From positions 10,154-74,153 of the forward strand of contig CAJINV010000011.1 in assembly GCA_905178155.1 (NCBI GenBank): a DNA stretch of 64,000 bases, written 5' to 3'. Shown piece by piece: positions 3,990 to 27,400 of this stretch. How positions within the stretch are numbered: position 1 is the stretch's first letter; every line of letters begins with the position of its first letter. A program made the position numbers and the translations under genes. The DNA comes from Amoebophrya sp. A120 (taxonomy: Eukaryota > Protista > Dinoflagellata). The notes beneath the pieces were generated by a model. It worked only from the letters and a program-made list of their open reading frames with translations, was not told the DNA's origin and ran no database searches.

Positions 3990-6900
3990 TTATTTTTGTC
4001 TCGATAGGTCGTGCTTCATTTCATGAGTCCGGTCGCCTTGTTCGCGATGGCGGGATTTCGTGGCCTTGTTCTCCTTCTCGTGGTGCTTCATGTTGCGATC
4101 TTGAGTTGCTGCCTCCCGGTGCTCTCTGGCAGGGGGGGCTGCGGTAGGAACAGGTATTTTCATCGAGAGGTGGCGGCTTCGACTGTCCTGTCGCAAACAG
4201 ACCGGGCCTCCACCATCGCCCGCGTCCGCCATGCTGGCGTCATCGTCGTCGTCGCTTTATGCGTTCGCAAATGTCCCTTGACGTCTGGAAGGATGCAAAC
4301 TTGTGATGCGCGTTTCACAATACTACACACAAACCCCTCATTCAGATGCAGCAAAAGTTTGCCCTTTCCTGTCACTGAAATAGCGGATTTGTCATTCGGA
4401 AAAGGCATTGCGAGACCTTCGCACAGCCTGTGAAGATGCTAGGACTTCTTGCATGCCAGACCTTCTGGGTCATGCGAAAGCTGCATCACGAACCTCTGTA
4501 TCCTTCCAGACATCCAGGATCGTTTGCACTGGATACGCTTTCGTGTTGAAAGTCGTCTGCTCGTGCGTGTAAGTCCGCACGATGTCCACTTGGTGGTGGC
4601 ACTGCTCGCACTGCACCTCCTATCCCACGAAAAAGTGTGACAGTCAGTATACACATTTGCTGCAACTTCAGCATCGCATATTTCTCGTCTGCATGTCAGA
4701 GAAAACTAGCAGTGCAAATAGAAATAATATCATAAGGAAAAACACTAACACGTAAAAAAGGAGGCGCGAAAGCCTTTCCTGCATCACAACGGTTTTCGGT
4801 CTTGCCGGTCCTCGTCCAACACAATGTGTATAGTGAAACACTTTTTTCTTGGCATACCAGCGTCTTGCGCCGGAAGCGACCGCGCTGCAGAAGCGGGCTT
4901 CGCCACCTCCAGTCTTGTACAGGTCGTGCTCCGGTAGTTGTTCCGCAGTTGCTCGTTACCACTTCCTATCAATGGCAAATATATGTCTGGGTCTGGAAGG
5001 TTCTAAACTTGTAATGCTGTCAGTGGATTCTACAAAAATTTGTCATGCGGTACCGGTACTATCACAAAGCCTTCTAAAAATCTGTGATGCTACGGCATGC
5101 ATCACAGACATCATGGCTCATGGAAAACATCATGCATGACAAATCTAGAATTCTTCCAGACCCAGACATTTTTGCATTTGATACTTCCGCTGGGAGTCGA
5201 GTCTTCCTCTCCAGGTTCGTTCCCAAAGTGCTCGGCGAGGATCGCATTCTCGACCGTTTTCCACCATGCGACGTTGGGCTTATCGGGAAGATGAGCTTTG
5301 GGTTCCGCCCAGCTGCACTTCCGGCGGTCGCGCACATAGAGTCCGCCCTCGAAGCTATCCTGAGTAGAAACGTCCCCACCCCACCACGTTGGTCATGCAA
5401 ATTATCCGCAGGCCGAAAATCAAATTCTCATTGCATCGCATGCGCAGCCGCATGAGAAGCATTTTCTGTAAGTACTGCGTTTTGCAATTTACCGTGCTGG
5501 AATCAGGCCCAAGGTATAGCCAGTCGATTTGTCATGATCCCACACTAGCTGAAGACGATTACGCGGCGAGTCCAAGTTTGTCATGCGCAACAGCTAAAAC
5601 TTCTTGTTGGCTTGTCGTATAGCAATTGTTTTCTCGTTATCTGGAAAGTGTACTATTCTTTTTCTGTTGGAGTTCGCTCAACGTTGCCACGCCCGCTAGG
5701 TGGCCAAAATGTGCATCTTCAAGATTGTCAGTGTATGACCAAAACTACTTGTCCTTGTCGCCTTGCAGCGGACTTGTCGGCATGCAGCAAAACTTGTGTA
5801 CAGCAAAATGTTTGTCGTGACCAGGGGATGGGGACGTTTTGTTCAGGATAGAAACGTCCCAATTCGAAACGCATCTCCCCAATTTCACCTAGATTGAGTT
5901 ATCAACATATAGTTGGTATACTGTCGTGATCAAGATGCCAAAGAATCGTCCGTCATCTTCATTTGTTGTGGTCTTGCAGCAATACCAGAGACGCAATTGC
6001 ACTACTTGATTAGTAATGATACCTTCATTCCGCCGGCTGAGCCCGCACACTTTTTTATCCTGAGCAAAAACGTCCCCCAGAATTCTCACGCAGTTTTGCA
6101 GTTACAGCAAGATTTGTAATGCGCACCTCCACGAGAGACTGCCATTTTCGATTGTGTTTTTGCATTTGTACTGACGGTGAAAACAGGAAAATCAGATGGA
6201 TTTTTGATACGGCTGTACTTGCCAACCTGCACTGCCCTACAAGTCGTAACTTGTCATGCGTGACTCGCAAAACTTCTGGATTGTGTTCAAGAATCCTCAT
6301 CGTGACTCTGGGGTGGAGACGTTGTTACACAGGATATTTTTCGATGTCGGGAAAGGTGCCGGCACCCTCTTCCTTCTCGTAGTCCAGTTTCAACAATTTG
6401 ACCGGCACAAACCCAGACTTGTCGTTGGCAGCCACGGCGCATGCATTGCAAACATGTCTGGGTCTAGAAACTTGGCATGCTAATAAAGTGTGGATGGCAG
6501 GCAGCCTCCAGTAGCACGCCCTGCATGGCAAGTTTTTCAGGGACTACTTCGTGAGTAAGGAGCATGACAAAGCCCCTTTTTGCAAGACAAACCGACGTCG
6601 CTGTATCGCAACGCGCATGACATCAAGTTTTGTTCTCTTGTCAGACCAGTATCACATGTCTTGCGAGTTCCAGACCCATTCAGATTTGCAGTGGATACGG
6701 TGTTAACGAGCAGGGTAAAGACGACCTCCCCTTCGCTTCCGTATCGGAGCACTTTTCCAAGCTGGTACGAAAAGTCGTTTTCCTGTTGCATTTGAGAAAA
6801 GACATAGGAAGAGCTTTTTCGTCTTGAGGCTTCCTGCTCAAAGAGCAAACTAGCAAAAAGAACATTTCTGTCGGAGCTATATTTTGTACTTAAACAACTT

Positions 6901-8367: not shown

Positions 8368-8555
8368 GAAATTCAACTTGTCGTAGAAGTCTCTCAGATC
8401 CCGACGCACGGGAATGTAGTGCTCGTAGGGCTGAAAGATCTTGTCGATCTGGTTGTCGTACCGGAAATGTGCGCGAGACAGGACCTGCCCGGCGAGAAAG
8501 GACCAGATATCACGCAGAGACACATTGTCGCTGAAGTTGTACTATGTAAACCACC
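8368..8555 (-). pseudogene. Truncated duplicate of the GT90 C-terminal exon
   Basis: [42 protein letters not shown], near-identical to 17819-18005. Confidence 0.8.
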
Positions 8556-9334: not shown

Positions 9335-12300
9335 TCATTGACAGGAGCGCGCCGCCTCATCGTGACGCCGTCGGATCATGGCGAGCGCGTCCTTGGCAGG
9401 GAGCTCGTTCGCTATGTGTCTCCTGTAGCCAGCCCCGTTCGTTCGTTCGTCAGCCTCGTAAATCGTCGACGTTTGCTCTGCTCCCAACGGCTCGAGTCCT
9501 TCCCTTTTGTGTCGGCACTTCGGCAGAGGAAGATGGTGGCGGCGGTACATTGGGTGGTCCCACTGTTCCGGGTGGGTGGGCAGCGCTTGTTTGATCACTT
9601 CGCAGCTGTATCCCCGAGAAAAAAGCAGGCAGGTGCTCGCAGCTGTAACGCAGAAATAAACACACAGAAAAATCTGTCATAGGCGGCCCCATAGTGCGCT
9701 ATTTAGGACACGCAAGACAGATTTTTCAGTGTGTTCATTTTTGCATTTACAAAGATGGCCCGCCGGCTTTTTTCTGTGGGATACACCGCAGGCTCTCACC
9801 CGTTCAGCACAGTCGTCCGCGGCCACTCTCTTCCCATGTGCTGGAGGTCCATCCGCTAGACCAAGGGAGACCCGCAATATCTCCGCGTAGGCCTGCTTTT
9901 CATTGTTCAGAAACAACTCCAGCAGCAATTTTCTTTCCGCGCAGTGCGTCCTCATCCGCCAGTCTTTATCCCAGAGAAAAAAGCTGGCAGGGCACATTTG
10001 TAATGCAAAAATCAATACACAGAAAAACTTGTCGTGGGTGGCCCCATAGCATGGGACTTCGGATATGCAATGCAATTTTTTTTGTGTATTCATTTTTGCA
10101 TTACAGAAATGCCCTCCAGCTTTTTTCTGTGTGATAGTCTTCCATTCCGATGAAGGTGCCATTGAGCCTCATGGCCACGTCGACGGACTTATTGTAAGGA
10201 AATATCCCGCCTCCCCATACTAAAAAGGAACAAGCCGCAGAAAATTTGCAATGCTGATGCGCGATCGCAAATCGGCTCCGTCTTGCAAGAAGGCAACTTC
10301 ACAGGCTCCGCCGCAGTATGAAGGCGGTTTGTGATGCTGTTGCACCTACAGTGTGGACATTTGTAATGCTAGGCCCTAGGTCAAAGCCTCGCTCCCCAGG
10401 GTTGACAGATGCCTGCAGTCCTCTAATGCAAGACAAGTGTGATTTGTGTACGAAAATGCAGCATCACAAATTAGCTTTTCGATATGGGGAGGGGTGTTTT
10501 TCCTTTTGATAAAACTGCACAGCACTGTTTTCCCCGCCGACGAGGTTCGCCGGCTGGTCGCGCAACTGTTTGCAGTATGCATGACAAATGTGTCTGGGTC
10601 TGGAAGGATGCGACTTGTGATGCTACCTTTCGAACACTCTACATAAAATCTGTATTGCATGAACAGCAAATCAAGAGGCGCAAACGCAATTGGCGGAGAG
10701 GGCATTTCTCATGCGGCATGAGCACCAGAAAGCCCTCGCAGAATCTCTAATGCTAGGGCATGCATCACAGACCCCATGGGTGATGCAAAATCTGCATGAT
10801 ACACTCCTGCATTCTTCCAGACCCGAACATATTTGCAGTTGATATGCACAGTTTGCGTGGGATCCAGCCGCGCTTTTTCTTTTTTTCTTCGGCTTGGCCG
10901 ACAAGCCGCAACACCAAAATTGGATCGGTTACGGTTAGCCCGAGCTGTTGTCGCGCTTTGCGCTCGGCCTATTACAATGAAACGCCCCCCCTCGTCACCA
11001 TGTTCAAAGGGAGATTTCTTGTCTAGCATGCTTTGTGCAGCTCACAGATTAGTTTGTCACCCTAGAAGGCAACAGATAGAGATGCGGGCTGCAGTGCTTT
11101 CTCCTTCAGCATGGCAGGAAGCAACTGGAAGTAGCGGGAAACAGCATGACAAGTTGCCTGCATACGCAGCTGCAAGTGCGTCTCTTGGCCTTCTAGCAAC
11201 ACAGGTTCATAATTTCTGTGCGCAAATCTAGAGTTCCACATTGACTTTTCGATATGGGGAGAGGGGATTTTTCCTCGCAATACGGTTTGGTTAAGGGTGT
11301 CCGCTCTGTGGATATGGACGCGCGTCCACTTTGCCGTCAGGAATCGGAGCGGCAACGTATTTGTGTGGAGAATATGAAGTGCAAAATTATCGCACTCGTA
11401 GTAATTGCTGTTACGTACCTACAAACCTCTCTCCTAAGGTAAAAAAACAGCATCACAAATTGATTTGTAGTGCTGAGCTAATTCGTATATGCAACTTGTT
11501 GTACTAGGAGCGCGGTAACAATTAAATCAACTAACTCGGATCTCCGAGTTAGTGGCCCGGCCGTCCGAATCCGGGCGGCCGGACGACTAACTCGGGATTG
11601 TAAGTGGGAAAGTTTTTCGATTGTTATAGCGACGCCGGAGCCGACGACTTCGATCAGAGGCGTGCTTTGAAAACGTCCTGGCAACATATGCAATTCGTGC
11701 GGTTTTGTGCATAATTTTTGCGCTTTCATCAAAAAACGCGCTTCAGTCGGAAAGCGTGTAAAACTGTTGCGCTTCGTAAATGTTAGCTTCACGGCAGGGA
11801 ATATTTCGCCATGACAAAACAGGCATCGCCTGCGTTGCAAAGAAAGCGAAAACGTTGCCCCGCCGATTTTCAAAAAAAACCCTAAGAGCACAAATAACAT
11901 GCACAAAAGCACAAATCCGCATAGGGAATTCCGGCAGTCACCGACTGCGCGAGTTGCCTGCTAGCTAGTGGTCGCCACGAGTTACCCTTACCTGGCTAGG
12001 GAGCTCGTGCGTGGCGACCAGTCTCGGCCGCCCGCAAAACTTTCGCACTTACAGGCCCGAGTTAGTCGTCCGGCCGCCCGGATCCGGACGGCCGGGCGAC
12101 TAACTCGGAGATCCGAGTTAGTTGATTTAATTGTTACCGCGCTCTAGTACGACAATTTTGCAATTCATAGGGAAACTCGAAGAACAATTTCGCGTGGAGT
12201 TCGTGCAGGGGAATCCGCAGTGCTGCAGCAGGTTGGTCACTGGTGTAGACGCGGCACATATCCACCTGTGTAGATTGACGTCCACGGCACCCCAGAGAAG

Positions 12301-15682: not shown

Positions 15683-17124
15683 GCATGGGGGTGTAAATAA
15701 ATCTGATTGGAGCTGCAGATCTCATGCGGAGAAGGCATTTCTCATGCGGCATTTCTCATGCGGCATGAGCACCAGAAAGCCCTCGCAGAATCTCTAATGC
15801 TAGGGCATGCATCACAGACCCCATGGGTGATGCAAAATCTGCATGATACACTCCTGCATTCTTCCAGACCCGAACATATTTGCAGTTGATATGTACAGTT
15901 TGCGTGGGATCCAGCGCGCTTTTTCTTCTTTTCTTCTCCTTGGCCGACAAGCCGCAACACCAAAATTGGATCGGTTACGGTTAGCCCGAGCTGTTTACAA
16001 ACATATAAAAATCCACCCATTTGCATTGGAACACTTCTGACTCCCCCCTTACTATCGCTTACCACAACTACTACAAATACTGCATGAAGAAATAAAGACG
16101 GTAGGTGGCGCTCATCCTGCTTCGTCGCGTGCAAAGCCAAACAAGTTGGGTGGCATTGCGACGATAAACTCGGCGAGATATTTCTATCTCGGTTGTTCCG
16201 AAAACGGAATTTACCAACTTTTCGGAGACAGGCCGGCGCAGCGGCAGTGACCGAGGAGAACAAGAGCAAACTCTTGAAATTCGGCGACCAATACTACTTC
16301 CTCAAGATCGTGGCCCGGGTGGCAAACAGCATTCGCGCGAACGAGGGGTCGGCGGAAGGCGACGGGCCGGACAAATTCAAGCGTGACGACTTGAAAAAGC
16401 TGAAGAAGGACGCACTCGCATTGTTAGGCGACAACGCGGACGACCTCGCTTTCTTCAAGCTGAAACCCGTCAGAACCGAAATCGCATGGGGGTGTAAATA
16501 AATCTGATTGGAGCTGCAGATCTCGTGCGCCTGCAGCTAGGTTCCTCCCCGCTGCGGGGGCTGGTCGCCCCTGTCTCAGCAAAAATCACGTCCGCAGCCA
16601 GCCCTTCCAAACAGCAAACAGCAGAGGATGATCTTCAGCAAAACCCACGCCGATGTTCTAACGAGGACAGCAAATCCCGGCGGAATCAGCCAAAGTTCGT
16701 GCGTCCGGTCTTCCTATCCATCCCCACTCCAAAATCAGTACAACTCCACACCAGCAGCTTGACGGACATGGTTTTCTCATACCTTGCTACCAAAGACCAG
16801 AAATTCCGGGTGCGGAGACAGAGCGGGAATGAAGACAAGAGGCTATGCAGCGAAGATGAACTTTTAGGATTCTTACAGCTTGAGAGCCCCGACGTAGATT
16901 TCACGATGAACAGCATTCGGGATTTTTGTTTTCTATCAGAACAATCTATATCAATACGACTAGCACTAGCAGGCGAGAACGCCGAGCAGCGGCGCAGGGC
17001 GATTCGGATCGAGCGTGAGGGGCTTGATTCGAAAAGCTTTGCAATACCCCTGCCCGAGCCTGAATGGGCTCAGATTCCGAAGAAGCATGGGGGTGTAAAT
17101 AAATCTGATTGGAGCTGCAGATCT
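15683..17124. repeat. Three copies of a 40-bp direct repeat separated by unrelated inserts of about 760 and 560 bp
   Basis: gcatgggggtgtaaataaatctgattggagctgcagatct at 15683, 16484 and 17085; single copy at 7967. Confidence 0.9.
15748..15995. repeat. Copy of 10701-10949 (right half of an introner plus the adjacent exon)
   Basis: Near-identical sequence. Confidence 0.9.
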
Positions 17125-17647
17125 TCAGCGTCGATCTCGTGCGCCACTTAGTGATCGCAACGCGCGCCTCTTCCAGATTGGGAAGTCATGGTGACGTGCA
17201 ACGGATCCACCATGAAGATCACTGACAGAAATACTATTACAGGATCTTGAGCACGGTATTTCCTGGAACTGATCGCAGTTTTACGTCTCGACAGACAACC
17301 GAAAGAGCATCTGGTTGCATACCGAGTTCAAATCGAAGACCATCTAAAAAAACATCTTCAATCCTTCAGATCCGCATTACAGATTCTCTGTCCCAATTCT
17401 AGTTTTCTCAGTTTCTGATGCTAAAGCCGTATTCGTAAGCGTGCCCGTAGCCGTGGTTCACCTAGTTGAAGATAGGAAAACGGTAGTGCGTCACTCGGAT
17501 TCAGTGGAAATCAGACTTACGTTCCGACGAGTACAAGAAAGGAACACTCAGTTCACAACAGCGGTGCCGCAGAGGATGCTCAGTTGTACATGTACTGAAA
17601 GTTGTACCGAGACCAGGTGGTGGACGTCTGTACATCTAGTCAACGTC

Positions 17648-20600
17648 CTATACTAGCAAAGATTCAACATCTTGTTCCGTGTGCCCGCCTTGAATCAGTG
17701 CAAGTTTCAAGATCAACGTGTGCATGTACCAGTATTTTGTCTCTAAATTGAACACCTCCTGGCCGAGCTTTTTGCCCCTATCTGCAATTTTCTCCGCCCA
17801 GTGGTCATTTGCCACGATGAAATTCAACTTGTCGTAGAAGTCTTTCAGATCCCGACGCACGGGAATGTAGTGCTCGTACGGCTGAAAGATCTTGTCGATC
17901 TGGTTGTCATACCGGAAATGTGCGCGAAACAGGACCTGCCCGGCGAGAAAGGACCAGATATCGCGCAGAGAAACGTTGTCGTTGAAATTGTACTTGTAAA
18001 CCACCTGGTCCAGCTCCGAGAAGTACTTCTCCCCCACAGCAGTTCCTTCGTTCTTCTCGAAGTGTGCTTCAAAGTTCCGGTGCACAAAAGCGTTCCACGC
18101 TTCCCGATTCGCAAAAGACTCCGGTTTATTTTCAAGAATCTGTGGCAAGGCCTTCTCCGCGGACACGCGGCCCGGAAATAGCGCAAAGTCTTCGACTATC
18201 AACTGCAAAAATGTCTGGGTCTGGAAGGTTGGAACTTGTTGTGCTAATTTTAGTTTTTAAAAAAATCTGTATTGCATGAGCAGCAAGAGGAGCCCAGTTT
18301 GTGCTACACGGGGAGCGCATATGTCATGCGGGATTTGCATCAGGAAGGCTTCTAAAAATATTTGATTCTAGATCATGCATTACAGACATCCCGAGTCATG
18401 CAAAATATGCATGACAAACCTGGTAACTCCTAGACCCAGACATTTTTGCATTTGATATCGATCGGGTTGAACTCGAGGCTGCGCGGCCAACTTGTTGCTT
18501 TGATGTTGATCTTGCTTGCAAACCTGCTGTGTCTAGTACGTCTGGCAAGATGCCAAGCTGTTCTGCCTTTTAGTTACACTTCACAGAAGTCGCGATGTGC
18601 CAAGTTTGTCTATGTACTTCTTGCGTGTACTGCAATAGTACTTACCATAAGCCGTCGATGATCACTTTGTTTTCATCCCTCGTTATTCTTTCATGGTCGA
18701 CTAGTAGACTCATTTATTCGACTTCCTACTCGTGCAGAGTACGGCGCAATATTGATGAGGGGCGGTTTTCATCTTCAAAAGACCTGGGCTCAATGCTATG
18801 CTTTGCGTGTGTTTATCCACACCCTCTGTTCTACTGAAGGATGCAGAAACAGCATGTCAAACGAGCCTGCTTTTCCAGACCGAGACATTTTTTTGCAGTA
18901 GATAGTCGAAGGAAAAGGAGGTTTTGTTGGAAAAGAGGAAGGGGTACTTCTGCTCCTTCGTTCCAATTTCCCGGTCTGCATCTAAAAATCGAAACTGCAT
19001 TTGCTGTTTTTTCAAAATCGAAACTGTTCTGCGCCCCCATAATGCTGCTTCGCACTGGTCTGTCTTCGTTCCCCGTCTGTCTTGTTGCCTGCGTTCTTCT
19101 TTCTGGTCCCCCGTGTTCCTGTTCGTGTCGGTGGTCTTTCCTGTGTCGCTTGTTTTCCTTCGCCCCGGTTTCTGTTGTTCCTGCTGCTACCGCTTCTGTG
19201 TCTGTGCCGGTGCTCTAGTGCTGTCCTGGGTTTTCTTCTTGCTGTCCTGGTGTTTTCGCACCTCTGCCCGAGTGTTCTACGTTAGCTTGACTGCTTTTCG
19301 CCAAAATCTGCTAGTGCTAGTGCCTAAAATCCCGAGGCCCGCAGTCAAATCATCGTCATCATCATCACAAGTCTTTCCTGCTTCTTCCCCGAACACAAGC
19401 GGCGATCAGTCTCCAACAGCTAGTCATCCCCGCGACCCGATAGGAACGAAGCCTAAAACTGTGAACGCAAATTTCGAATCCCGAAACTAGTCTCAAATCT
19501 TAAATCCCGGTAGGTCAAATAGGTACTGCTACTGCAAGACGGGTCCGGGGTCAGAACTGCATCGATCGGAATCTTCTATCAGCGAGGGAACACCGTCGGA
19601 GGAAGAAGTTGCAGTCACCGGCAAAGTCGCTACACGACTACACGCCCCCTGACTGGAACTTCTTCTTCGTTTTCGTCTTGAACCCCGACGTTATTTTTTC
19701 AGACGCAAACATACCGACATCAAATCGAACACCATCTAAAGCTACATCTTAAATTCCACAGATACGCATTACAAATCCATAGTCCCAAGTCTAGTTTTTC
19801 CAGTTTCTCATGCTAAATCCGTATTCCTAAACAGCCCGCAGTGACCGTAGCCATGGCTCACCTCCTTGAAAGTAGTAAGAAAGCCAGTTTTTCATGCGGA
19901 TTCAGCGTAAATCAGAGTTAATTTCTTTGCTTTCCTCTTCCTCTCTTTTCCTATTTTCTTCGTCTTTCGATCGTAGCAAGAATTTGCTTGCTTTTCTTCG
20001 GTTTTCTGGCCCTTTTCTTGCTCGATCGATTTCTTTTCCTCTTTCTTATCATCCTGTTCATTTTCTGCATTTCCTAACTTTTGATCTATGAGAAACAGCG
20101 TTCAAAACTAGTTTTCAAATACACACCTTTCCAGACGAAGACACTTTTTTGCAGTAGATACTCGAATATCAAATGTAAAAGTGTCTGGGTCTGGAAGAAT
20201 GCAACTTGTGATGCTATTTTTGGAATCCAAAAAAATCTGTATTGCATGAGCAACAAGAGGCGTCCAGTTTTTGCTCCGCGGAGAGGGGATTTCTCATGCG
20301 GGATAGGCATCAAGATGCCCGCAAAAAAATTGTGATGCTGGTGCATACATCACAGACATCACGGGTCATGCAAAATGAGCACGACAAGCCTTGCAATCTT
20401 CCAGACCCAGACATTTTTACAGTTGATATCGAAGGAAAAGGCGGTTTTGTTGGAAAAGAGGAAGGGGTACTGGCGAATATTCTCTTCGTCGTGCGCAGTG
20501 AGGAGGAGTGAACCTTTCCCGGTTATCCTCAGTAGAAACGTCCGCACGACCCCAGAGTTGTCATGCAAAAGGGCAAAAAACGCACGTGTTTCTTATGCGC

Positions 20601-23600
20601 GGCACCATCAGGAGCACGACTCTCTAATGCTGTTTGAAATTTGTCATGCTAGAATCAGGATACGCTTATCGATTTCTAATGCGTTTCTACTAGCTGAACA
20701 GGATTAAACGTACACTACAAGAAACGTGAATTTGTCGTGCGCAACAGTCACAACCTGTCGACTTGACTCTGGGACGGGGACACTTTTACGAAGGATAACG
20801 GTGTGCTGGATTTCTCCGTTCTTGATCGCGTTGGCCCGGTGTGCTAGCTTCGCCAACACCGCGCGGGGGCTGTTTGTGGACGGCGAATGCACCGCAAGTA
20901 TGTCTGAGTCTGGATCTGTGATGCAGCAAAACTTGAAAAATCATAGTGAAATCTGTATTGTGCACGAATGCGACTGACCACTTTTTTTGTCGTGCTCCTG
21001 CCAGCCAGCGCGTTATGCAAAACACGTCAGTAGAAGAACATTCAATGAGTATATACCAACCAAAGAATTTGTCATGCGTCATTCGGAAGGCGTGCAAACC
21101 ATCGCTCGATCATGCCAGAAGACTCAGCAACACAAATAAGTATGAGGCATCTTTGTCCAGACACAGAAATATTTGATGCATGTGATACGGCAGGAGCTTG
21201 GTCAACTCTGCTTGGTCGTACTGCGTGATGGACCGATTCGTGTTTTTGACAATACCGGCAGCATATCAAATGCAAATATGTCTGGGTCTGGAAACTTGTC
21301 ATGCTGAGTTGTGAGAAGCAAGTGAATTCTTTGTAATGCACAGCCACGCATGACGAGATAAAATATCTTTATTTGCGCGGCTTAGTGTTGCGCTTTCCGC
21401 AGGACTAACTGCGTTTTGCATGACAAGAAAAAGGGTCTCTTCTTCGACACGCATCACAAACTCTTCAGGCATGCCAGACAAGCATGACAAACCTTGCATT
21501 CCTCCAGACCCAGATCGATATTTGCATTTGATACGGCACTCGAGTCTTCGATTTCCAGTTGGAACGTACTGCGCAGCAACGTCCGAAGCTTGACGTAGTC
21601 GTCGGCTTGGGCCACAGGTGTAGGAGGCGTGCGTGGCAGCTTCCTCTTCTTACCATTCCGTCGCGCAGTGTGATCCAGTTTCCGCAGGAAGCTCTCGGTT
21701 GCTCCCTCTGGCCAGTCGCCCGTCTCCCGCACCGTGTCCTGGACTTTTCTCCACAATCGCTCGTCATCCCGCATGAAGCGGCGGAAGTAGACACCACGAG
21801 GGTCACTTGCAGCGGGATCGCTGTCCATTTGCGGAGGCCGGTCCTCCAGCACGCTCGGCCCTGGGCCCCCATCGTCCCTGTGGAATTGCTCATACAAGCG
21901 AGTCCAATTCCACTCGGCGCCCACGACGGCAGGCACGCCCCGAAAGAAGAATTCCGGTCTTCGTTCTTTCCACGGAATGTAGTTCAGCCGCATCTGCATT
22001 TCGTATGACCGGTGCCACCCAGCCAGAAAGTTCTGCACTGTTGGAAGCTGCAGCGCCGTGTCAGAGGCGGTGAACGGAAAGATTGACCGCGTCCACGACA
22101 TATGCACTGCAAATATGTCTGGGTGGTGCGGAAACCTGTGATGCTGAGTGGAGCATGATTGAAGCGCTTGCAATATTGGCAGCCAAGCATGACAAGTTTT
22201 TGAGACAGTTCTGCTGATGCCTAGCACGCATCACAAATTGCATTTATTTTTGCACCATGACAAAGTAAGCTCCTCTTTTGCTGCTCATGCAACACAGATT
22301 TTCAAGGAATGCAAGACACGTATCTTCACAAGTTCCACCTCTCCAGATGCAGACACTTTTGCATTTAGTACGACATAATTGGTAGCTCGAATGAAGGTCG
22401 TGCATTTATTTCCGCGCGGTTTTCGTTTTCATCCACCATGGTACTGGTAGTTTTACCCGTTGCCAGGTCCAAACTTTCCTGGATCATGCTGTGGAAAAGT
22501 TACAAAGAAGAAAATGCGTCCGGCTAGTAGCTCCAATCAGTTCTTACAAGTTCTGGTGCTTTCATCATGATACATGTAATTGTATCCACCACCGGCACCG
22601 AGCTTGTTTTGATATTATTGCTCGAAAAGAACAGGACTAAAGATGGGTAGCTCGAGAAAAATACAGATGAGACGATATTGCCCACTTACTGACAAAAAAA
22701 TCACATCCTGCAACAGACTGATCGCTTAACGGGACGCAAAGAAATTTCCTTTCATATTAAAACCGCACGCCGAGGTGTCCTTGGGCAGAACTCCGTGGCC
22801 GTCCTGCAGCAGCCTCGGAGGCCTTTCGTGCGAAGTGCTCACAGTCGTAGGCCGGCATGTGCCTCGCAACGAGGAACCACGCCTGCAGCAATTTCGCGGC
22901 CTGCCAGCTTTCCGAGTGACGGACCTGCCAGCTGTAAAATTTGCCCGGGTATCGAACGGAAGCATGTCTGGGTCTGGAAATAAGTTCTTGTCATGCTAAA
23001 AATAGTACATGAGTGAAGAACTAGCTGCAAAAGTACGAAGCCAATCATAACAATTTTTTCAGCGGTTCTGTAGTGCGTCACACGAATAATTGCCGCAACA
23101 CTTATCACTATTACAGCCAGAACGTATGAATAATAATTTCAATTTGTGTTCAGCATTACAACTTTCAGACCCAGATCGATCAATTTGCAATGCATACTTG
23201 AGCTGCGGGCGCGCAGCTACGCCCGAGGATTTTTTGCGGACAGAACTGCACGAACAGCTCGCACTGCTCCGGGTGATCCGAGTCGAGTATTCTGTGAATA
23301 ACTTTTCCAACCAAGAGCTGTTATGCAAATTTGCATGCCCAGTTTGTGTCGCATGTGCACCGCCTTGAGGTGAGCAACACCTCATGATGTCTGGAATCTT
23401 GTGATGCTGTAATCTGGATACTCAATGCGCTAGGTCTGTGATGTAACATCAATACGCAATAAACAGGACGACACTACAGACGCAAATTTGTCATGCGCTA
23501 CACACAGAGCTTGTTGGAGTGCGTAGCAATTTCTCTTACCTTGTTATTTTTTTTACACCCGTGGAAAAAACATGTGTCTGGCCGTGCAAAACTGACCCAT

Positions 23601-24456
23601 GTGTCTGGCCGTGCCGGGAAGGGAAAAAACCAAAAATGCGACAAAAAATCGCGGCATCAGCCTAAATCTAAAACCCTGCGCCATAGGATCTTCTTCTCCG
23701 GGGCGGGGTAAAAACAAAATTTAAAAAAAGCGCTTCTCTTCCCGGCAGGGTGGACAAGAGCTCCCGCCCCCGTGTTGCTTCCAGAGTGGCCGGCTATCCT
23801 CCACTGAAACGGCGGCACCAGAGGGAAGGCGCAGAGAGGCAAAGGAAGAAAAAACGCAGCGGGGGCGGAATCGAAGCCCTGGGCTTCATCGCGTTCCGCA
23901 GGTAGCCGCGCTCGAGCACCAACCCGGCTCGCCACTGCCTCGAGGACGTCCACATTGGGAAGAGAAAGTGCAGGACCTGGAAGGTCACCCGAAAATATCG
24001 CTGCTAAAGATACCATACTCGGGAAAAAAGTCGCCCGCAGATGCAGTTTTTTCGCGATATGCTACTGAAATACGCTGGTCTTTCGGCACAAGGAAATAAG
24101 CAGTTGCCGTTTTCACTCAAACCCGAGGGTACTGCGAGAACCGTTACCAATGCACGTCCACCACAGCATGCGGTTTGACTTTTTAACGGCCGGGTCTATA
24201 GACAAGTAAAGTCCTCCATACCATGCTGATTGAGAAACCACTGTTAGTCATGGATTTCATCATGCCATGCGTATACAATGTCTTTGTAAGGAAATTACAT
24301 CATGCCGTGCTGTTTCAAAAAAGGACTTCGAAGCCAGACACAAGCATAACATGCATATTCGCGCTTCAGGGAATAAATCAAATCGATTATACTATGCGGA
24401 TCAAAAAAAATTGTTTACACTTCTCGATTTGTGCGTGTCATCCTTGCGCAGGGGCC

Positions 24457-24488
<32 letters not shown>

Positions 24489-27400
24489 ACGGATGACTCC
24501 CGAAGGAGATCCAAACACTAGGAAAAATGGAAAACAGGGTAGCCAGAATACGGGGTGCTAAATACTCTAATTCGGGCAAAAAACATTATTTTTTTGGCAT
24601 TTTGACCATTTAAAGGGAAAAACACTCGCGATTTCTGTGTCCGCGTAAAAAATGTATATTTTTCCCGTGAAAACCAGTCCGAGAAATACTCGCATCTCAT
24701 CGTGTTGTTACTCCCAGATGCTACTTGATTAATATACGGCCTAAAAATCGTCGGCTTCCGCCGCCCTAAGGAAGAAAGCTGCTTTGAAGCGAAAAAAGGT
24801 TGTAATTCTTGCACAGGCTCTCCCACCTGCGGAAAGTAAGAGAAACTCTCTCGTTAGTTTGTCTACAGGACATCCTCACCCCTTGTGGAAAGAGCAATCG
24901 CCACGTGTGGAAAGCGCAAAACTCCTTGGTTGGTGTAGCAGAGCAGTCCCCATCTGGGGACTGCTTGGGTGGGAAAGCCGTTTTCACTCAGGATATCGAT
25001 GACGCTGTAGTCACGACCACCGTAGTGCTGCAGCGGGTGGACTAGATGTTCTTTTTGGCTGGCGCCACGTGGATTTGTCGCGGCCTGCTGCTCGTCAGGA
25101 TTCTGCAGACCTTCTCGTTGTCGATCTGGGCTCCGCTCTGCAGGAACATCTTCTGTGTCGAAGAACTGCAATTCGGCTTCTGCCGCATCGTCTGCTGCTA
25201 TCTGAGCGCCGACGGAGGCTGCACTCTTGCCGGTACTGTCGTCCCGCAGGTTCTTGGGTCTCGCATCGCTGTAGTACCGCTTCCAAAACCGCAGATCCTC
25301 GTCTACGCCCTTCAGCATCCACTGGGGCCGGTCCTTCAGCGGCGTGCGCAACATCTTTTTCAGTTGCGGGAAGCAGCCATCTATGCACTATTGAAAAGGT
25401 ATTGCACTAGCATGAATTTATTTTGTATGACAAGCTTTATTCTACTCAGAAAGAAAAGTGGAACTAGTCATGCAGATTCAAGTTGTACTAGGAATAAACA
25501 ACTTGTTTTTGTCATGCGTGACTGGCATAATTCTTGCGAGTACGAGAGTTTTGGGCGGGATACAATCTGCGTGCTTCAGCGCCATCTTCAATTTGTTCGC
25601 CGTGCTCGCATTGCTGGTCCTGGCCACGTATCAATCGCAAATAAATGTGTCTGGGTCGGCCTTGTGATGCAAACATCCAGAGCAGGCAGAAATCTGTATC
25701 TGGTATGCACGGGGAGCAAAATAAAAAAAAGTTGTCTATCTCTTGTCACCGGCGACGGTGACGCGTCATGCGGGGGAGGTCACGAGAAAAATGTGGAAGA
25801 TGCTGTGTGATGCAGCTAGGGCTTGAGTGCGGGACCGGGTCGAGAGAAAAATGCATCACAAATAAAATCTGCACACATGGAAACCCAGATCGAGGCTTGT
25901 AATCCATACCGCATCCACATTGAGCGGCCAGTTCCAGCCGAAGAGGGAACCATTGTCGGTGTTTTTGTCGTATGCATTGGAAATGTGTCTGGGTTGGGAT
26001 TTTTGATGCGAGATCTGAAGGAGAAGGACAACAAGATTCGTAATGGTTCTTGCATGAACAAGATTAGCGAATTTTTTCGTCGTGCTGAACGGCTACGGTG
26101 GGATGTGGGAGTATCAGCAACACGAGTTTCCAGACCCAGACATATTTCGAGTTGATATTTCGTCCGCACTCATGTTGTCGGTCACAGCGTCAAAGTGGAA
26201 GCAGATGTTCGGATTGTGTGGCGCGGCACAGCTATGCATTGCAAATATAATGCCGGGGTCCTCCGGAAAGTTGCGATGCAACTCAGCGACGTGGAGCAAG
26301 CACATTGTAATGCTCGGCCAACACGTATGACAGATTTTTTCTTCGCTCTTGATGTTGCGCCTTACTTCTTCATGAGAAATTGCGTTTTATTTGCATGAGA
26401 GACAACAAGCAAAGCTCCTCTGCTTCGATACGCAATAAGTTTAAGTACCGAGCTCAGGTTTAACATGCCTCACTAGCATCACAAGAAATCTTGCAATTTT
26501 CCAGACCCAGACATATCTTCGGTGGATCATAACAGCAAAACTTCATAAGCTGCACGTCGTCCAGGAGGTCCGGGGAACCGCCGAGGCGATGGTACATCTG
26601 TCGCAGGTTGACCGCCGTTTCCGGATGGATTTTCTGCTGCTGCAAGGAGTCCAGCATGTTCTCAATCATGTCTTCGTGGGTGTCAAACGAAGCCGCCTGC
26701 ACTGCGAGCTTGCGGATGGGCGCCCAGCAGTACTCGGAATCCGAAAGCTGGTCGTTTTCCGCCGCCGCCGCCGGGTCTCCTCGAGCTGGGCCGTGTAGTC
26801 GTCCTTCAGGTCGGGGATGGTTCTTATCAGGCAGAGCTTCTTTTTCTTGCCCAGGAGGCTCCAGCACAGCCCGACTGTTCGGAACCGCCGTGGATTCGTA
26901 GCGAGTGACTGGCGACTGGCCGGTCCACCGCTTTGTAAAAATGTCGTTAATGTCAGGTTCTTGTTTCTCAAGAATTCGGGGCGCGGCTGTAGTGCTACCA
27001 CGCGTTTCATCGCCACTTGCAGAAAAGGACCCAGTAGAGGATCGACCGTCCGCGAACTCCACAGGATGAAGAAGAAGCAGTGCGTATTGTGAGGAAAAAT
27101 CTCCCCTCCCCGTATCGCAAAGGAAATTTGTGATGCTGATTTGTGACCACATACCACCTTTGTCGTGCATACAAGGCAAACGGCACTCATATGGCGCATT
27201 GTGCAGCCAGTCTGTCACGCGTTTTTGCCTATGTCAGACTTGTTGCTCATGCGCAGCTGCCAGCCGGATGCGTACCCAAATGGGCTATAGAATATGCCCA
27301 CGAGCTCTTGCTGCACTACAAAGCTCATCAACGTACACAAACCCAGCAACACAAATTGTCTTTTGGGTACGGGTTGGCGGGTTTTTTCGCTTTGATAGTG

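Follow-up and report, generated by a model that had tools for sequence, protein, structure and literature searches.

How an intact gene for U6 small nuclear RNA (snRNA) came to lie inside a non-canonical intron, and by what signals its RNA might be made there, is the question raised by a locus of the marine parasite Amoebophrya sp. A120 (contig CAJINV010000011.1). The window, that is, the whole 64,000-nucleotide (nt) stretch analyzed here and to whose first letter all positions refer, is rich in elements of 170 to 310 nt that run from TAT to ATA between 5-nt direct repeats. This anatomy is that of the introner elements published for this organism (Farhat et al. 2021, PMC7789003, in the sections covered). 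A longer element of this kind, at 24995 to 23288 on the minus strand, measures 1,708 nt, shares its anatomy with the other introns of its host gene, and contains the U6 gene. We assign a probability of roughly 0.55 to the reading that the U6 gene reached a resident, still-spliced family-B introner by secondary insertion and that RNA polymerase III (Pol III) makes U6 there.

The U6 gene and the host intron

The U6 gene occupies 24512 to 24403 on the minus strand and is intact, as an earlier note on this DNA had recognized from the letters alone. Rfam model RF00026 matched 24511 to 24406 (minus strand) continuously over positions 1 to 105 of its 105 positions, scoring 106 bits (gathering score, 44; E value, 1.4e-26), and this was the sole Rfam match at the gathering level within the window. 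The ACAGAGA box at nt 40 and the AGC triad at nt 52 of the gene, the 5' stem-loop, and a terminal run of eight T residues (T8) starting at 24410 are all present. Among the contigs searched, two metagenome loci share U6 alone with the window, and no viral contig or prokaryote genome does. The first (L001) carries a U6 identical at 110 of 110 nt amid 37 tRNA genes in 5.6 kb, and the second (L002) carries a U6 identical at 108 of 110 nt between open reading frames (ORFs) of at least 902 and at least 327 amino acids (aa). Neither the cargo nor an introner is present at either locus, and no change in U6 is specific to the A120 copy, the sequence of which equals that of L001. The L001 array (L001:1-5571) is dense and has nearly all of its tRNA genes on one strand, with U6 in the middle at 2527 to 2636.

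The host gene extends over 17651 to 27869 on the minus strand, which is the sense of the U6 gene as previously stated, and has 15 coding exons for a protein of 1,127 aa with a C-terminal glycosyltransferase family 90 (GT90) domain. A public protein, P0001, whose source names A120 as the organism, maps to the window in 15 exon blocks with 1,126 of its 1,127 residues exact and one junction residue unmapped. Pfam domain PF05686 (GT90) was found in the last exon (E value of 1.3e-11), one of seven stretches scanned, and this exon, when used as a query, matched two of 335 candidate proteins, namely, P0001, at 100% identity, and an orthologue, P0002, at 54%. In P0001, the upstream exon (25375 to 24995, aa 404 to 530, ending in YSVID) is joined from aa 530 at 24995 to aa 531 at 23281, the start of the downstream exon (23281 to 23198, aa 531 to 558, beginning with SDHPEQC), and the resulting 12 residues equal the junction predicted beforehand. 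Removal of the element with one copy of the flank takes out 1,713 nt and restores the reading frame. The A120 gene models were derived from transcript and protein alignments (PMC7789003, in the sections covered), and the outer junction in P0001 therefore has indirect transcript support for splicing. Splicing of the enlarged intron is predicted to use its outer ends.

The earlier note had held that the case would fall if the flanking exons belonged to two separate genes. This is ruled out by the exon join in P0001 and by P0002, which matches exons on both sides of the element (25381 to 25241 and 22942 to 22760) in one chain, so the flanking exons are those of one gene. A paralogous stretch at 8368 to 8543 was rejected as an empty site, since it covers only the 3' end of the host gene; it repeats part of the last GT90 exon at 95% identity, adjoins an introner, and has the look of a partial segmental duplication.

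A foreign insert between introner ends

A family-B profile was built from five copies of 274 to 298 nt and searched with nhmmer, and the length of the U6-bearing element is about six times that of these copies, in agreement with the first estimate. The element is flanked on the minus strand by ATCGA at 25000 to 24996 and CTCGA at 23287 to 23283, which are alike at four of five nt and fit the 3- to 5-nt border repeat of A120 introners. The family-B-like terminal inverted repeats originally described proved imperfect, with 9 of the first 16 nt agreeing between the two ends. By the introner end rule (TAT, seven variable nt, and at least three A residues), both ends have TAT, the A-run of the left end comes one base late, and the right end has ATAA. 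The profile matched the left end with its terminal repeat at 24995 to 24912 (profile positions 1 to 75, E value of 1.3e-4) and the body and right end at 23534 to 23288, where profile positions 41 to 263 matched 23534 to 23307 (E value of 6e-21), followed by a decayed terminal repeat. The introner-derived part of the element comprises a left segment of about 84 nt and a right segment of 247 nt, and the profile matched nothing in between. The right part is 61 to 67% identical to seven family-B copies, close to the spread within the family. Joined at a common 6-mer, the two ends give 296 nt that score 85.5 bits over profile positions 1 to 263, as a normal-sized copy. Both the confinement of the matches to the ends and the normal score of the joined ends are consistent with secondary insertion. 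The single 1.7-kb intron element that had been proposed keeps its outer boundaries; within them, introner ends surround a foreign insert at 24911 to 23535, and there is an extra right end at 24733.

The foreign insert (1,377 nt, minus strand) is not introner-like. It has no match at an E value of ≤0.05 to the profiles of five other introner families, four of which were built from only two or three copies, and blastn found no copy of it in the rest of the window. A second copy of the cargo was likewise absent from the window and from the metagenome, viral, and prokaryote collections searched, which are not known to include the A120 genome, and no recognizable mobile-unit ends were found on the insert. 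As to the earlier suggestion that a U6-carrying mobile unit landed in the introner, landing fits best, and mobility is unsupported for a piece for which neither such ends nor a second copy was found. The other origin offered there, in which introners capture and spread U6, depends on the other A120 U6 loci. Near its left side the insert contains a 53-nt intron-like piece (24879 to 24827, minus strand) with GT-AG borders, a CTAAC motif, and a pyrimidine tract. It is one of two such matches in the window; 29 of 2,000 shuffles of the insert contain one, by a pattern that was written after the piece had been seen.

A different history of the element is suggested by the second, internal right end of family-B type at 24770 to 24733 (minus strand). 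In this history, a 263-nt B-ended element (24995 to 24733) and a second B copy flank a U6 locus in the manner of a composite or Pack-type introner, and the whole 1.7 kb moved via its outer ends into a GT90 exon as a new intron. The internal end lies 263 nt from the left end, a normal introner distance; the end motif has five matches in the window, namely, this end and four true B termini; and the score of its terminal 42 nt was reached in 5 of 300 shuffles. Profile positions 41 to 75 are present both left and right of the insert and are diverged as in separate copies, the outer ends have the 5-nt repeat on their flanks, and the A120 genome has several U6 copies. In addition, 14 nt from the core of the left terminal repeat (24990 to 24977) recur without mismatch inside the element at 24119 to 24106 (minus strand), the two being the sole matches in the window at up to one mismatch. 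However, the interior at 24911 to 24775 is not homologous to family B, its score being reached by 140 of 300 shuffles, so that 24995 to 24733 was rejected as a complete ordinary B copy. Moreover, the family-B profile found no left end for a second B copy, the outer right end is decayed, and a second cargo copy is missing from the searches described above. We regard the composite history as unlikely, though it is the main rival of secondary insertion.

Joining via the inner end, or reading through with the intron-like piece removed as a mini-intron, met stops in three of three joins tried, the inner end giving an immediate stop. The left end as coding sequence that is read through (open frame to 24863) was rejected as well, because the stretch matches the introner profile and the tried joins hit stops.

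The GC-rich block reported at about 23550 to 24040 is present, with 55% GC, and its core at 23720 to 23960 has 62% GC, against 38 to 44% in most neighboring parts. Part of this block might be a further sense exon that the public gene model omits, with U6 then lying in one of several smaller introns. The minus-strand frame 23949 to 23830 has a codon-model score of 0.33, like that of true exons (0.11 to 0.41, in the training set), and donor-like sites are present at 24879 and 23539. Against this, P0001 skips the region, none of eight ORFs reached a Pfam cutoff, other frames are lifted by the high GC too (0.17 to 0.22), and the family-B profile located no left introner end around 23570. The two longest ORFs had no homologue among longer proteins, the only length class searched, and a captured exon of a known protein was tentatively rejected on this basis. 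A hidden exon is very improbable on this evidence.

Within the block core, a piece shaped like a tRNA-Sec lies at 23938 to 23856 (minus strand) and is followed by T6. It scored 16.6 bits with Rfam RF01852, against a cutoff of 47. Eight of nine acceptor pairs, five of six D-stem pairs (with a UGGU loop), five of six anticodon-stem pairs, and two of four T-stem pairs can form, and the anticodon loop is a 4-nt CUAC in place of a 7-nt loop with UCA. The piece forms 20 of 25 possible pairs, whereas eight other descriptor matches in the window form at most 11 and none of 2,000 shuffles did as well, an optimistic comparison because the descriptor was written afterwards. Folding is no better than that of shuffles (z scores of -0.46 for the GC-rich block and -1.06 for the tRNA-like piece). 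The piece is likely a relic, and it may resemble the tRNA-Sec of apicomplexans. ARAGORN found no gene in the window. Signal recognition particle RNA, U1, and other known RNAs were rejected as identities of the block, with no Rfam match near a cutoff, and so was a decayed tRNA array like that of L001: a model from 31 of the 37 L001 tRNAs gave 14 window matches at an E value of ≤10, none of them in 24911 to 23535.

Nested inserts are not peculiar to the U6-bearing element, and other inserts enlarge introners in this window. The B introner at 5356 to 5850 is enlarged to 495 nt and has profile positions 54 to 89 twice around about 160 unique nt, the pattern seen in the U6-bearing element and close to the same end. 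The introner at 11373 to 12169 holds an unrelated 637-nt element (11508 to 12144) with 112-nt inverted repeats (95% identical) and TAG on both flanks. The host intron at 20425 to 18501 (1.9 kb in the public model) contains at about 18948 to 18873 a near copy of the end of the preceding exon and an introner start (91% over 76 nt), and it also carries a dispersed repeat found again at 17318 to 17519. Elsewhere, introner pieces at 10701 to 10885 and 15748 to 15932 are 95% identical, far closer than other family copies, as in a recent duplication. The host intron at 22493 to 22760 has a pyrimidine-rich CAG end, no GT start, and no clear end repeat, so that it may combine canonical with non-canonical borders.

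Proposed arrival and transcription of the U6 gene

The 45 nt upstream of the U6 start have 27 start-anchored identities with the corresponding stretch of L002, a number reached by none of 10,000 shuffles. The conserved stretch at 24550 to 24513 (minus strand) is likely a promoter element. Farther upstream, the adjoining 45 nt are at background, as are the 45 nt downstream of U6 (9 to 10 of 45). In mammals, retrocopies of U6 made by L1 reportedly place extra U6 sequences at dispersed sites, with poly(A) and a flanking duplication and with the upstream sequence lost. Such a retrocopy was rejected here: no poly(A) follows U6, the longest repeat flanking it is 4 nt, and the upstream stretch is retained. 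Because of these features and the unspliced intron-like piece, the insert looks like a gene copied as DNA together with its upstream signal.

The earlier note had left open whether U6 is transcribed by Pol III or processed from the excised intron. Pol III is favored by the sequence features, because the upstream stretch is conserved, the gene ends in T8, and the same U6 stands outside introners in two relatives. In yeast and humans, U6 is synthesized by Pol III and terminates at oligo-T (PMC5855946, in the sections covered). Processing from the excised intron, like that of an intronic snoRNA, with a U6 level that tracks the host gene, would suit the shared strand and the presence of most snRNAs in the transcriptome assemblies (PMC7789003, in the sections covered). 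The signals and relatives' loci just named, together with the Pol III origin of U6 in yeast and humans, make this route a highly unlikely one.

It is also conceivable that the gene is a silent passenger, recently copied from an active locus and untranscribed in its present position. The neighboring tRNA-Sec-like piece is broken, and the identity to the relatives' genes may be inherited from the donor locus. The 110/110 and 108/110 identities, the T8 end, and an upstream conservation that contrasts with a downstream stretch at background count against silence, and no fresh insertion ends are seen. We consider silence rather improbable.

Under the preferred reading of secondary insertion, a family-B introner would first have inserted into the GT90 exon with a 5-nt duplication, an event whose outcome is the observed anatomy. 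A piece of another locus of about 1.4 kb, comprising U6, its upstream signal, and the tRNA-Sec-like relic, would then have been copied as genomic DNA into this introner of about 296 nt, 60 to 84 nt from its left end, probably during break repair, which would have doubled a subterminal stretch. The insert would have been tolerated with the intron ends intact, as the junction of the public model indicates, and U6 would be transcribed independently, stopping at T8. Splicing through the outer ends, together with U6 synthesis from the gene's own signals, would have kept the insertion harmless.

Several observations weigh against this reading. At the junction, no part of P0002 aligns, and no empty site was seen. 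There is no clean target duplication around the insert, and the stretch doubled on both sides of it is only 17/27 identical, no closer than independent family copies are to one another. The upstream conservation holds for one of the two relatives, L001 having 12/45 identities. The pairing of the ends is also unfavorable: in a fold of the whole element, the two outer ends are paired over just 3 nt, eight internal windows surpass the outer right end in pairing with the left end, and the internal right end at 24733 forms a more stable pairing with the left end than the outer one (-28.1 versus -22.6 kcal/mol), although the alignment score favors the outer over the internal right end (33 versus 24). 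In favor of secondary insertion, the outer pairing of -22.6 kcal/mol is the weakest, compared with -30.5 to -43.6 kcal/mol for six B copies. The element is probably a passive host that is no longer mobile.

Relation to known systems and biological meaning

The nesting of U6 in an introner is real and unusual, and its components are already known: A120 introners, nine U6 loci, and transposon-U6 links of the reverse kind, as in Dada. With the published A120 introners, the element shares the TAT start, ATA end, inverted repeats (here imperfect), 5-nt direct repeat, and membership in a repeated family, and it differs in being about six times the family length and in carrying a 1.4-kb insert with U6 (PMC7789003, in the sections covered). 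That study analyzed introns of 40 to 1,000 bp only; its covered sections report U6 at nine loci of the A120 genome without giving their context. With multicopy, dispersed Pol III U6 genes, the window copy shares its full length, its oligo-T end, and the occurrence of several genes per genome, the promoter layout varying by lineage; unlike them, it lies inside a transposon-derived non-canonical intron, and its promoter is putative (PMC5855946, in the sections covered). Dada-U6 likewise links a DNA transposon physically to U6, and Dada families occur in the alveolate Perkinsus; however, Dada splits U6, makes a 6- to 7-bp duplication, has no terminal inverted repeats, and codes for a DDE transposase, whereas here a whole U6 lies inside the element (PMC3706591, in the sections covered). 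A Dada-U6 transposon was rejected because U6 is unbroken over model positions 1 to 105. Literature searches, whose coverage did not extend to most subscription papers or to supplementary figures and datasets, returned no paper on U6 inside an introner, and snRNA cargo in introners is not mentioned in the covered sections of PMC12130899, PMC12005148, and PMC11282704.

Despite its length of 1.7 kb, its weakly pairing ends, and its foreign cargo, the intron at this locus seems still to be removed with precision. The locus provides a natural test of end pairing alone as the definition of these introns, because it contains a rival internal end that apparently goes unused. How Amoebophrya removes non-canonical introns without detectable U1 is an open question (PMC7789003, in the sections covered). 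The finding also suggests that introners can offer small RNA genes a safe place to land within exons.

Pack-type and composite DNA transposons carry host DNA within terminal repeats and make a target duplication. The U6-bearing element differs from them in that its ends are decayed, it is predicted to be spliced out as an intron, and a second copy of its cargo was not found in the searches described above. A bolder proposal is that A120 introners, acting as transposons of this type, delivered to an exon, in the form of a single self-removing intron, a Pol III cassette of U6, its promoter, and a tRNA-Sec-derived RNA, which would explain several of the nine U6 loci. We put this forward tentatively and think it improbable; it depends on the other A120 U6 loci. 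Were the same cargo present at these loci, a core spliceosomal gene would be traveling in introners, and under the composite history, an intron-making element would spread the catalytic RNA of the very machine that removes it, in a lineage without detectable U1.

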